Shown here: piece by piece, positions 16,760 to 28,252 of the stretch | Numbering within the stretch: the first letter of the stretch is position 1 | How the letters are laid out: the number at the start of each line of letters is the position of its first letter | Origin: Candidatus Gastranaerophilales bacterium | Lineage (GTDB): Bacteria > Cyanobacteriota > Vampirovibrionia > Gastranaerophilales > Gastranaerophilaceae | Direction: 5' to 3' | Length of the DNA: 44,125 bases | Assembly: GCA_944324035.1 (NCBI GenBank) | Contig: CALUUU010000001.1 | Coordinates: 1 to 44,125, forward strand | Translations under genes and position numbers: made by a program | The notes under the pieces: generated by a model | Databases searched by the model: none | What the model was told of the DNA's origin: nothing | The model's input: the letters and a program-made list of their open reading frames with translations, nothing else

Positions 16760-19700
16760 TTATTTAAGTTTTAAAAGTTCCACGACTTTTGTAAATTCGG
16801 ATTTTTCAACCCATCCTTTGTACAAATCCATATATATATTATCGGTATCTAAATCACCAAGGAATGAAACCTGTTGGTTTTCAACCGGTAAATCAGAACA
16901 AGGCACGTCGTTATATGAACCGCTCATATAAATATTGACATCATCTCTGCCGGTTACGGCTTTTGTCACGTTTGACGCATACTCAACAATTGCGTCACGT
17001 AATTTCAAACCGCCTTCCTCAGAAGGTTTTGCACCATTATTTATTTCAATATTATCAATAATAAATGCAGGTTCGCCGTTCTTATCTTTTACAAAATAAA
17101 CAAGCGCATTTCCGATTGTTTTGCCTGTTGTATTATCAACAAGCTCAATCATATTATAAGATGTATTCATCAAATAATGCGGCATTGCGCTGCCGTTGCC
17201 TCCGCCCATACCGATACAGCAGGTTGAATAGTTGCCCTGGAAAATATCTTTTTGCGGATTTCTGTCCCACATTTTAACAGTTAAATCAAGCGATTTTTGA
17301 ACAGTTGAAGCCGGTACGTTTTCAATATCTTCCAGTCTTGTCTGTAAATGCGAAAGAACTGTCAGAGTATTTTTTGCCATTGCGGCACGTTTTGGATCTT
17401 CACTTGAAGCGTTGCCCTGTGCACGTTTCCATACAGAATCCAACTGTTTTATTATATTATTTGTGAATTCTTTTAATTTTGCTTTATTAGACATAATTTC
17501 TGACGGAATTATAAATTCACCGTCTTTAATATACTTAGGGAACTGTTTGTCTATAAATCCTTTTACAGGTGTTTGTCTAAGGGTATTAATATCCTCTAAA
17601 AGCTGAGCTGAAATCTGCTGTAAATGTTCCTGGTTTTTATCTTTTGTTACAAAATGAACTTCGGCAGATTTTGGCGGATTTATCCAGGTTTCATAATTTA
17701 TACCTGCCTCATTATAAGCCCCTTTCGTATTTGCATTTGATTTGCCGTAGATATTTGTTACGTCATGTATATATCTGCTAAAATCATCAAGGTTTGCGGC
17801 ACGGATTAAATCAGAGAAGGTCTTATCGCCCGCTTGTGTCGGAATATGCAACTCATCCCGGATGTCAAATTCTCCCTGTATTTCTTTGGCAAGAAGATGA
17901 GTATATTTTGTATCCCACGATGAAAGTTTTTCTATAGGGATGGATGAGATTTCTTCATCTGTCATGCCCGAATTTTTCATAATTTTGTTGAACAAATCCA
18001 TATGCAATTCCGCAACATCAACCTTTCCGGCTTCAATCATAGCTTCCATCTTTGATGTATCCAGACCGTTCATTTTATATGCATTTATCAAATCTATAAA
18101 CTCAACTTTTTGTGTCGGCATAAAAGGTTTCCCGCTGCTGTTATATGAATTGCAGAGGTTTGTAAGCAGTTCAAAATCCTTTATATTGAAATTGTTTGTA
18201 ATATCAAGATATTCTTCAACATCATCAAATCTTTTTCGCATTAAATGGTTCATGCCTTCTTTATCTATTGCAGCATTCAATTCAGCAAGACGTAATTTAT
18301 TCTTGTCTTTAAAGAATTCTGCAATAGCTGTATTGCATTCTTCGCGTGAAGCATATTCGCCGTTTACATATAATTCAGGGTGTTCATATACCGCTTTTTC
18401 TACTTCATTTTCTATTTTTTCTATTTTTTCTTTCCAGGTCGTACTGTTGAATTTAAAATCTTTTGTATCTTCTGGATTTATACCGTCATATAAATGTCCG
18501 ATTTCATCTGTTGCTATCTCCGGCTTATAACCCAAAGAAGTCAATTCTTCCGTTGAAGATTTGTTATTATTCAGATTAGAAAGGAACTTAACTATATTTG
18601 CATTAGTTGTTTCATAATCCACATATCTTGCATTAACAGCTTCAAGACCGCCGGTGACATCATTATTATGAATATCCAGGACATTATCTTTGATTAAATG
18701 CAGATCATTTACTATGTAATCCCATTGTTTGTCATCAAGTTTTGCCAGCGCTATCATCATATCAGATTTCAATGATAAAAATCCTTTTGGAGTAATACTG
18801 AATATATTTCTCTTAATCATATTTTGGATTTCTTCATCAGAACACTGTGTAACAATATCTATAATATTGCTTGCTGATGTGGAAGGAGATTCATACTTTG
18901 TTTCCGGATCATATTTATACTCTGTATATTTAAACAAATCAAATTTTTGGATAGTGTTCCAGCGGGTTTCATCTAAGTTTATAAGTTCCGGAAGTTCCTT
19001 AACAATTAATGACATTATGTATTTTGCCAAATTTCTTTCTTCAAAAACTTTTATATCTTCGACAGTTAACGTTTTAACTGTTTCATACCCCGGATTTGTT
19101 AACCAATAATCACTAACTAACATTTTATCGGCGTGTCTTTTAAATAAATCCTTCTGAAAATCCGAAAGATTATTATAATTAGCTAAAGCTTCCATATTCA
19201 TTTGAACATAAGAGTCCGGCTTTTTTTCAAATCTGAAAGAATAGGAAGAAGGCAAAACTTTTTTCCCGGTGGCATTACTTATTTCAGTCATTGCCTGCTT
19301 ATATTTGTCAGGAATGGCAGGCTGCAAATAGTTATCATATAAGTAATCAGTAATTTTTTCATTCCTTGGCGTAAGAATTAGGTTGGATAGAACATTTATA
19401 TTAAATTCATCCAGTTTTTCCTGCCGCAATACAGGCTCCTGAATTGCCTTAATTTCTTCTAATTGTACATTTAAATCTTTTTTCGTATAAAAACTTGACG
19501 GTTGAATAAGATTTTTCAATTCAGGGCTGAGAGCTTCGTAGCCGCCTGTTTTAAAGTCTTCTATTTCACATAAAGCCAAAATTCCGCGAATATCAATGAC
19601 TTTGTCACTATTCAATTTAGTTTTAATTGCATCAAGAATTTTTTCATCTTTTATTTGCGGCAATTTTTCCATGACAACATTCATCTCTTTAGAATTTAAC

Positions 19701-28252: not shown

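Follow-up and report, generated by a model that had tools for sequence, protein, structure and literature searches.

How would a gut bacterium deploy a single protein of 3,830 amino acids (aa) in which several unrelated toxin-type modules follow one another? The question is raised by a stretch of 44,125 nucleotides from a Candidatus Gastranaerophilales bacterium (contig CALUUU010000001.1), called the window here, in which one open reading frame (ORF) occupies positions 16760..28252 of the minus strand. An earlier note had described an uninterrupted 11.5 kb ORF with a beads-on-a-string layout of the polymorphic or MARTX-like kind, and both descriptions hold up. The frame opens with ATG and has no internal stop, and because of the stop-codon frequency in DNA of ~35% G+C a run of 3,830 stop-free codons is not due to chance. 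On its sequence, the ORF is genuine. We conclude that its product is probably a polymorphic multi-effector toxin from a gut bacterium of the Gastranaerophilales (Melainabacteria), because its modules are shuffled among relatives, its N-terminal block is conserved and a cassette has been swapped with respect to its closest relative.

The N-terminal block (aa 1-1040, 25133..28252; this and all other parts of the ORF lie on the minus strand) is the constant element of the family and the candidate delivery or translocation region. When aa 1-1060 were compared exhaustively by HMMER with 1.84 billion representative sequences, 125 proteins were found, 40 of them at E < 1e-30. About 30 of the 125, with lengths of 1,500-6,024 aa, align from their own N-termini over the first ~1,040 residues of the giant protein, and the rest of their sequence is mostly unrelated to it. 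In 29 of these proteins the cargo amounts to 52,000 residues (median 1,659, maximum 4,992), which at a coarse BLAST level form ~46 groups, including 29 singletons. Word-indexed searches were far less sensitive, returning three relatives for aa 370-1060 and one for the C-terminal 1,001 aa.

The cargo modules recur in other orders and combinations. Searching with aa 2150-2800 retrieved 29 proteins, 439-1,108 aa long, that each contain either the zincin-like or the RelA-like module described below, never both, together with other domains. A profile of the RelA-like module, run on one genome per GTDB species, identified 34 loci with module-bearing ORFs of 691-4,355 aa. Relatives are designated here by locus (L0xx) or by protein (P00xx). 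The ADP-ribosyltransferase (ART) is joined directly to the RelA-like module in L009, and two tandem modules are joined directly to it in L013 and L014. Longer shared segments are found in L011 (giant aa 2468-3830), L019 (aa 1786-2832 and 3292-3829) and P0063 (aa 487-1036 and 3191-3830). The earlier note had asked whether orthologues exchange modules, and the 34 RelA-module loci and ~30 proteins with the N-terminal block answer that they do: at the sequence level, modules recombine freely among relatives.

Comparison with the closest relative, L008, gives the most direct view of such an exchange. The two proteins are 88% identical over aa 1-2900 and have different C-termini. At the DNA level, window positions 19761-30841 match L008 with 88.8% identity up to the close of the RelA-like module (aa ~2830), and the match restarts at 84% across a small downstream ORF. 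Between these flanks are unrelated cassettes of 3.0 kb (window 16756-19760) and 4.6 kb (L008:11086-15658), and the swapped stretch starts where the RelA-like module ends and reaches to the toxin stop codon, right before the small ORF. The difference is a cassette replacement between conserved flanks. Judged by eye only, the alternative cargo of L008 includes a duplicated module with a GHKL-ATPase-like N-box.

The RelA/SpoT-like nucleotidyl (pyrophospho)transferase module (aa 2480-2829, 19766..20815) is the cargo to which a small downstream gene is linked. The Pfam RelA_SpoT profile matches it at E 4.4e-4, with 20.9 bits against a gathering score of 27. A family profile searched against the PDB up to E 10 has two matches only, SaEAS (8vx3; E 0.0014) and RelP/YwaC (6fgk; E 0.04), and both alignments fall motif on motif with the module. 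SaEAS is an exported alarmone synthetase (PMC12691689). Within the last ~430 residues of NCBIfam XopAD/SKWP models there are further matches to this stretch (E 1.9e-5 to 8e-4). These matches probably fall on the Rel-like domain of those models, as Rel-like domains occur in XopAD-containing proteins (PMC12691689). The GY..Q, E.Q and EH..Y motifs do not vary among 19 homologues; R.KS..S...K and D..G.R reach at least 90% conservation there and do not vary in the 6 closer sequences. Because several weak profile matches concur and all synthetase motifs are present, a RelA/SpoT fold with an intact active site is well supported, with no single match above its curated cut-off, and the synthetase module named in the earlier note is upheld. 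The motifs deviate in detail. The module reads GY..Q and E.Q.RG where synthetases usually have GY..H and E.Q.RT, and its D..G.R and GY motifs are ~120 residues apart, a spacing that is shorter in canonical small alarmone synthetases.

A 143-aa ORF (16274..16705, minus strand) begins 54 nt past the toxin stop codon. It carries a GAGG ribosome-binding site, no terminator separates it from the toxin gene, and the two are probably co-transcribed. The earlier note listed it as an adjacent ORF of no known function, a bystander role that the comparison of loci overturns. Of the 34 RelA-module ORFs, 32 are followed by a homologue (29-88% identical), in most cases at a distance of 10-130 bp, and so are those at all four further RelA-module loci (L003, L005, L006 and L007). 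This linkage is independent of ORF length and of where the module sits within the ORF. The two loci that lack the small ORF have the most divergent RelA-like modules (26-27% identity), and none of four family members that lack this module (P0026, P0016, P0021 and P0008) has a homologue at its locus. When neighbouring genes are clustered, the small ORF is the only one linked in all contexts. The order effector, small ORF, rimI, bioY is syntenic in 14 loci, and this site is presumed to be the ancestral location. Because such a linkage pattern matches that of cognate immunity and antitoxin genes, as for Apk1 and Apk2 (PMC12691689), the 143-aa product is the probable cognate immunity protein of the RelA-like module. 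A profile of the small-ORF family has no relative in Pfam or the PDB.

Two further observations concern small ORFs of this family. Four relatives that carry other C-terminal cargo have extra ORFs of 63-215 aa between the toxin gene and the small ORF (L010:12285-13599, L017:11735-12202, L022:13862-14386 and L024:14111-14407), which may be additional immunity genes; the window has no such extra ORFs. The start of the small-ORF family, MNxINPxxxNKxNFKG, resembles the KINxxNNxLTFKG/S found before a hydrophobic stretch in proteins whose only recognized module is the zincin-like one (P0022-P0026), and this common sequence may be a targeting or recognition motif.

The identity of the ART (aa 1080-1401, 24050..25015) is confirmed. 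Its core (aa ~1251-1389) matches PF03496 (ADPrib_exo_Tox) at E 3.9e-13, with 49.6 bits against a gathering score of 23.4, and PHROG 3895 matches it at E 3e-14. The catalytic arginine (VQRVD), the S-T-S motif (GTSMS) and the ExE motif (ETE) are kept in 7 of 7 homologous modules aligned, which confirms by sequence the R-S-ExE transferase read earlier from the translation. The domain is easily overlooked. A Pfam run on the full 3,830 aa gives a marginal LysM repeat as its sole match, and a rerun on segments of 200-540 aa recovers the LysM repeat, the ART and the sub-threshold RelA_SpoT match. Giant proteins rich in low-complexity sequence need segment-wise scanning, because hmmscan on the full-length protein lost a 49.6-bit domain that a 421-aa segment regains.

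Between the ART and the zincin-like module are two tandem modules (aa 1402-1790, 22883..24049) without an assigned function and an unannotated helical segment (aa 1791-2032, 22157..22882). The tandem modules of the earlier note recur in L013 and L014; their relationship to each other is weak (20% identity, pairwise E 4e-4). The helical segment is shared with L019, where it lies inside a single aligned block (giant aa 1786-2832).

The zincin-like module (aa 2033-2444, 20921..22156) begins with a helical part and continues as an alpha/beta core. It has the HExxH sequence HEITH at aa 2310 (window 21311-21325), and both an extended R-H-E-x-x-H-x-N motif and a downstream glutamate (EFIAVAAEGD) are invariant in 14 homologues. 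An AlphaFold2 (AF2) model with a mean predicted local distance difference test (pLDDT) score of 85 places the helical part before the strands, then the HExxH helix and a later helix that bears the glutamate, a topology compatible with that of zincins. On this basis it is reasonable to call the module zincin-like. Its profile has no match in the PDB, and Foldseek searches of the model against the PDB and BFVD give nothing significant; the top hit is a putative Zn-peptidase (4l7a, E 0.49), and Wss1 is also among the hits. Peptidase_M90 matches 2 of the 14 homologues weakly (E 2e-3). The earlier note had called this module lethal-factor-like. The conserved HExxH module stands, and the lethal-factor label is not supported: the ATLF profile misses the module and all 14 homologues, and no lethal factor appears among the Foldseek matches. 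Of the three catalytic folds for which the note had advised profile searches, the ART is found outright, the RelA/SpoT-like fold is found below threshold and the zincin has no significant fold match. The Pro/Glu linker noted before is present as VVPEPVQEPEPAVIPEG (aa 2450-2466, 20855..20905), read from the sequence.

ATLF-type sequences do occur elsewhere in the family. The cargo of L029, a protein of 3,804 aa, matches an ATLF zincin at aa ~2100-2230 (E 2.4e-5) and the calpain-like Peptidase_C2 at aa ~3690-3780 (E 3e-4), which suggests that some family members carry eukaryote-directed cargo. A separate ATLF-like protein is encoded at L005:17002-19020.

The remaining cargo lies within the swapped stretch. 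Helical variable cargo (aa 2830-3275, 18428..19765) begins at the L008 DNA breakpoint and is unannotated. It is followed by the C-terminal cargo module (aa 3276-3830, 16763..18427), the Cys-containing domain of the earlier note, in which a Cys-Cys pair at aa 3678-3679 (window 17216-17221), an asparagine and the glutamate of a DNIE motif are invariant. The module recurs in P0030, P0063, L011, L019 and more distant proteins. It belongs to no known family, and its profile has no relative in Pfam or the PDB. WD40 matches of this profile were rejected as an artefact of a short repeated motif.

The constant N-terminal block is built from several different elements. The first is a helical motif of ~60 aa that ends in G-V-G-L-E-H (28073..28252). 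The family has two variants of these first residues, and each closes with G-phi-x-phi-E-[HRK] 55-70 residues from the start, a motif that is a candidate export signal or processing site. No Sec-type hydrophobic core or signal is seen at the N-terminus by hydropathy. A beta-rich repeat region follows (aa 61-230, 27563..28072), for which the label of YD/MORN-like repeats given earlier finds no profile match in segment scans. One of two LysM repeats proposed earlier is detected, marginally, at aa 233-276 (27425..27556; E 2e-4; one segment scores 21.6 bits, where the gathering score is 20.9, and others fall slightly under it), and the second is not. Helical domains (aa 373-715, 26108..27136) are modelled with pLDDT ~80-89 and have no structural match in the PDB. 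The last element is a set of Gly/Ala/Thr-rich helices (aa 716-985, 25298..26107) with the conserved motifs GDIAxMLxGT and SAGFGxxGG. This is the Gly-rich hydrophobic segment of the earlier note, and its hydrophobicity is moderate: the Kyte-Doolittle maximum of 1.46 is under the level of a classical transmembrane helix, and moderately hydrophobic stretches occur only at aa 717-741 and about aa 903. In the AF2 model of aa 370-1060, confidence is high over the helical part (aa ~370-720) and low over the Gly-rich helices. A structure search of the PDB with this model gives nothing significant. The faint matches (GRK2, MATE transporters and AhlB) were set aside as noise, the model being partly of low confidence.

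The absence of the usual delivery markers, as stated in the earlier note, was confirmed across the libraries scanned. RTX motifs (GGxGxD, G.G.D), RTX profiles and WxG motifs are not found in the protein. Segment scans with Pfam and NCBIfam give no match to PAAR, Rhs, LXG, two-partner secretion (TPS) or cysteine protease (CPD, Peptidase_C80) domains, and with PHROG added they give none to the known trafficking domains (PAAR/Rhs/VgrG, LXG/WXG, TPS/FHA, MuF, Sec), the N-terminal block included. As that note also observed, there are no secretion genes beside the toxin in the window, and none recur in the flanks of the 34 loci. A TolC-like OEP gene lies ~3.5 kb downstream of the toxin gene in L006 alone and is not linked to the toxin.

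These observations can be combined in a model of a polymorphic toxin whose export, toxicity, immunity function and target we infer. The constant block, from its helical head through the beta-rich repeats, LysM and helical domains to the Gly-rich helices, would provide for export, binding to the envelope or target and membrane translocation. The exchangeable cargo modules, joined by low-complexity linkers, would act inside the recipient cell. The RelA-like module would poison any cell through uncontrolled production of (p)ppApp or (p)ppGpp or through pyrophosphorylation of tRNA, a toxicity proposed on the model of Apk1/Tas1, the exported alarmone synthetases and the toxSAS enzymes. The 143-aa protein would shield the producer by binding and blocking this module. 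The other cargo might be harmless to the producer, either because its targets are specific to eukaryotes or because it serves in an accessory capacity, the zincin for instance in processing, or immunity to it might be encoded elsewhere. Recombination that swaps cassettes between conserved flanks would have diversified the cargo. We lean toward neighbouring cells as the target. Bacterial targets are implied because immunity is needed, and cargo with no adjoining immunity gene may be aimed at eukaryotes.

Several points weigh against this reading. The model is derived from sequence and predicted structures, and export is a prediction. No known trafficking domain, Sec/Tat signal or adjoining secretion gene was found in the segment scans and 34 flanks. 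Nothing in the PDB matches the N-terminal block structurally, and the model of its Gly-rich part is poor. The RelA_SpoT match falls short of its Pfam gathering score, and the best Foldseek match of the zincin model, 4l7a, is not significant. The RelA-like module is internal, whereas classical polymorphic toxins have their toxin domain at the C-terminus. Finally, there is one immunity candidate for at least four putative enzymatic modules, which is unusual for toxins directed at bacteria. The rival explanations are less likely than the polymorphic-toxin model.

The best surviving rival, which we consider unlikely, differs from the polymorphic-toxin model in the delivery route. The protein could be a surface-anchored, contact-dependent toxin that follows the logic of contact-dependent inhibition (CDI) or MafB systems, with the N-terminal block remaining in the envelope, LysM on peptidoglycan and hydrophobic helices in the membrane, and with the cargo cleaved off on contact. 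The LysM repeat and the conserved amphipathic Gly-rich helices would suit such an anchor, the low-complexity linkers part the modules from one another, and the zincin is available for processing. However, there is no Sec signal that would put LysM in the periplasm, the hydrophobicity is under that of a typical transmembrane helix, and the segment scans found no two-partner or autotransporter domains.

The possibility that the protein is never exported is slightly less likely still. The RelA-like module and the small ORF could be a toxSAS-antitoxin pair of the CapRel or FaRel kind, fused to sensor or additional suicide domains and acting within the cell as a toxin-antitoxin or abortive-infection system. 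The toxSAS layout, too, is that of a RelA-like toxin followed by a small gene in tight linkage (PMC12691689), and neither an export signal nor secretion genes were found in the segment scans and 34 flanks. On the other hand, a LysM repeat and Gly-rich amphipathic helices conserved within a 1,040-aa block are ill-suited to a cytoplasmic sensor, and the RelA-like module is present in only a minority of the proteins that have this block. The cargo also includes an exotoxin-type ART, and that of relatives includes calpain-like and ATLF-like proteases. PADLOC gives no matches, and the loci are not defence islands.

The genomic setting bears on a third explanation. In the window, the toxin gene has ordinary chromosomal neighbours (fab-like genes, enolase, glyA, an MraY/WecA-like gene, rimI, bioY, a prepilin gene and a PD-(D/E)XK nuclease gene), and the setting is chromosomal and cellular. 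Related loci are on contigs of metagenome-assembled genomes (MAGs) titled Candidatus Gastranaerophilales, Melainabacteria or Vampirovibrio; a few bear other labels (Muribaculaceae, 'Brachyspira sp. CAG:484'), and these we take to be mislabelled Melainabacteria. A polyvalent protein of a phage or conjugative element, co-injected with DNA to subvert a new host, would belong to a class described as having 2-15 conflict-related enzymatic domains per polypeptide (PMC5512222). The giant is similar in having many enzymatic domains, among them an ART, a zincin and a RelA-like domain, in one polypeptide. ART and zincin-like peptidase domains are reportedly frequent in polyvalent proteins. RelA-like domains are furthermore known from MuF phage toxins (PMC12226406; PMC12691689). 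Unlike polyvalent proteins, the giant lies among housekeeping genes at a locus that is syntenic across species, has an immunity-like gene and contains no MuF or other virion or conjugation domain. No relatives of its N-terminal block or RelA-like module are found in 2.9 million IMG/VR contigs, its PHROG matches are limited to ART families and one borderline family of unknown function (E 0.009, in the RelA-like segment), and no phage context was found at the locus. This origin is therefore very improbable.

An assembly chimera, or a decaying pseudogene that has stayed open by chance, has next to no probability. The window is probably MAG-derived, to judge from the related loci, which are all MAG contigs, and the exact protein is not on record. 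Yet each junction of the ORF is supported by the independent assemblies L008, L011, L019 and P0063, which together span all of them and so rule out a chimera. ORFs of such size (2,000-6,000 aa) are found in dozens of genomes, and the catalytic motifs are intact.

The N-terminal block, for which we infer roles in export, envelope or target binding and membrane translocation, might define an unrecognized delivery route for very large toxins in these non-photosynthetic relatives of cyanobacteria. We offer this further step tentatively. Two mechanisms may fit: the block could be a self-translocating scaffold, or it could be the substrate-recognition and translocation domain of an export machine so far not associated with toxins. 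An example of such a machine would be the flagellar-type genes flhB, fliI and flgG, which non-flagellated Gastranaerophilales keep and for which a secretion role has been postulated (10.64898/2026.04.24.720558, a preprint). One carrier would then deliver up to ~5,000 aa of mixed cargo, directed at bacteria and eukaryotes, into neighbouring cells within the animal gut.

Some other genes of the window and of the related loci can be described briefly. A lipid or aryl-polyene-like biosynthetic cluster (1588-13423) appears to include two ketosynthases, a FabG-like reductase, a dehydratase, acyltransferases, an AMP-ligase, a thioesterase, a LolA-like protein, an MMPL-like exporter and a phosphopantetheinyl transferase; all of these were named from their translations, not from profile matches. 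Upstream of the toxin gene, a 556-aa multi-pass membrane protein (28339-30009, plus strand) had been called a GT-C glycosyltransferase, a label suggested solely by PMT_2 at E 0.91. This protein, a 381-aa Ala/Gln/Ser-rich protein (30048-31193, plus strand) and a 506-aa protein (41607-43127, plus strand) are without a family assignment. For the 506-aa protein, suspected kinship with the C-terminal cargo module and suspected synteny with L006 were both rejected, as was the suspicion that L044 contains a split version of an L026-like gene. A prepilin-type protein (32141-32869, minus strand) has an N-terminal methylation motif (Pfam N_methyl, E 2e-6) and a relative near the toxin loci in L025-L027. 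An ATPase of the type II secretion system or type IV pilus kind lies near P0026 in L001.

The Gastranaerophilales are a widespread group of uncultured gut bacteria, and little is known of their ecology. Hypervariable multi-enzyme toxins of 2,000-6,000 aa together with an immunity gene suggest that they actively antagonize bacteria, protists or host cells. With its ~46 sequence groups, the cargo of 29 proteins is a large pool of unannotated domains, and the small ORF adds a candidate immunity family for RelA/SpoT-type toxins. A conserved carrier with no known export logic also poses the question of how signal-less proteins of more than 400 kDa leave a diderm cell. Literature searches on toxins, polymorphic toxins and secretion in Gastranaerophilales, Melainabacteria and Vampirovibrionia turned up no description of this toxin family. 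Exported RelA/SpoT-type toxins with immunity genes have already been reported in polymorphic toxins (PMC12691689; PMC12226406), and an exported RelA/SpoT toxin with an immunity partner is not new in itself.

The MARTX toxins of Vibrio have a similar overall architecture. They too are giant polypeptides with an interchangeable effector array that differs between strains. The giant described here comes from a different phylum, however, and it differs in having no RTX or glycine-rich nonapeptide repeats, no match to an autoprocessing cysteine protease and no adjoining type I secretion system (T1SS) genes. Polymorphic toxins such as Rhs, CdiA, LXG and MuF proteins share with the family a constant N-terminus with cargo that varies among relatives, the displacement of a cassette between conserved flanks, and a small downstream gene that follows one toxin domain. 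Unlike them, the giant has an N-terminal block that matches no known trafficking domain, many toxin-type modules in one polypeptide instead of one, and an immunity-paired module that is internal and not C-terminal, with one immunity candidate in the locus.

The RelA-like module itself has synthetase motifs in common with Apk1/Tas1 of the type VI secretion system (T6SS), Apk2 (MuF), SaEAS, the XopAD Rel-like domains and toxSAS enzymes (PMC12691689). Its best PDB match is SaEAS and its best NCBIfam matches are XopAD-type models, and a small gene adjoins it as in Apk1 and Apk2. Exported RelA/SpoT toxins with immunity partners are known on Sec, LXG, XopAD, MuF, DUF4157 and Rhs/PAAR carriers, and the carrier of the giant is absent from that list of export domains, as Melainabacteria are from that report (PMC12691689). 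The concept lies within the polymorphic-toxin paradigm, and the interest of this family is in its carrier, its cargo pool and its host lineage.

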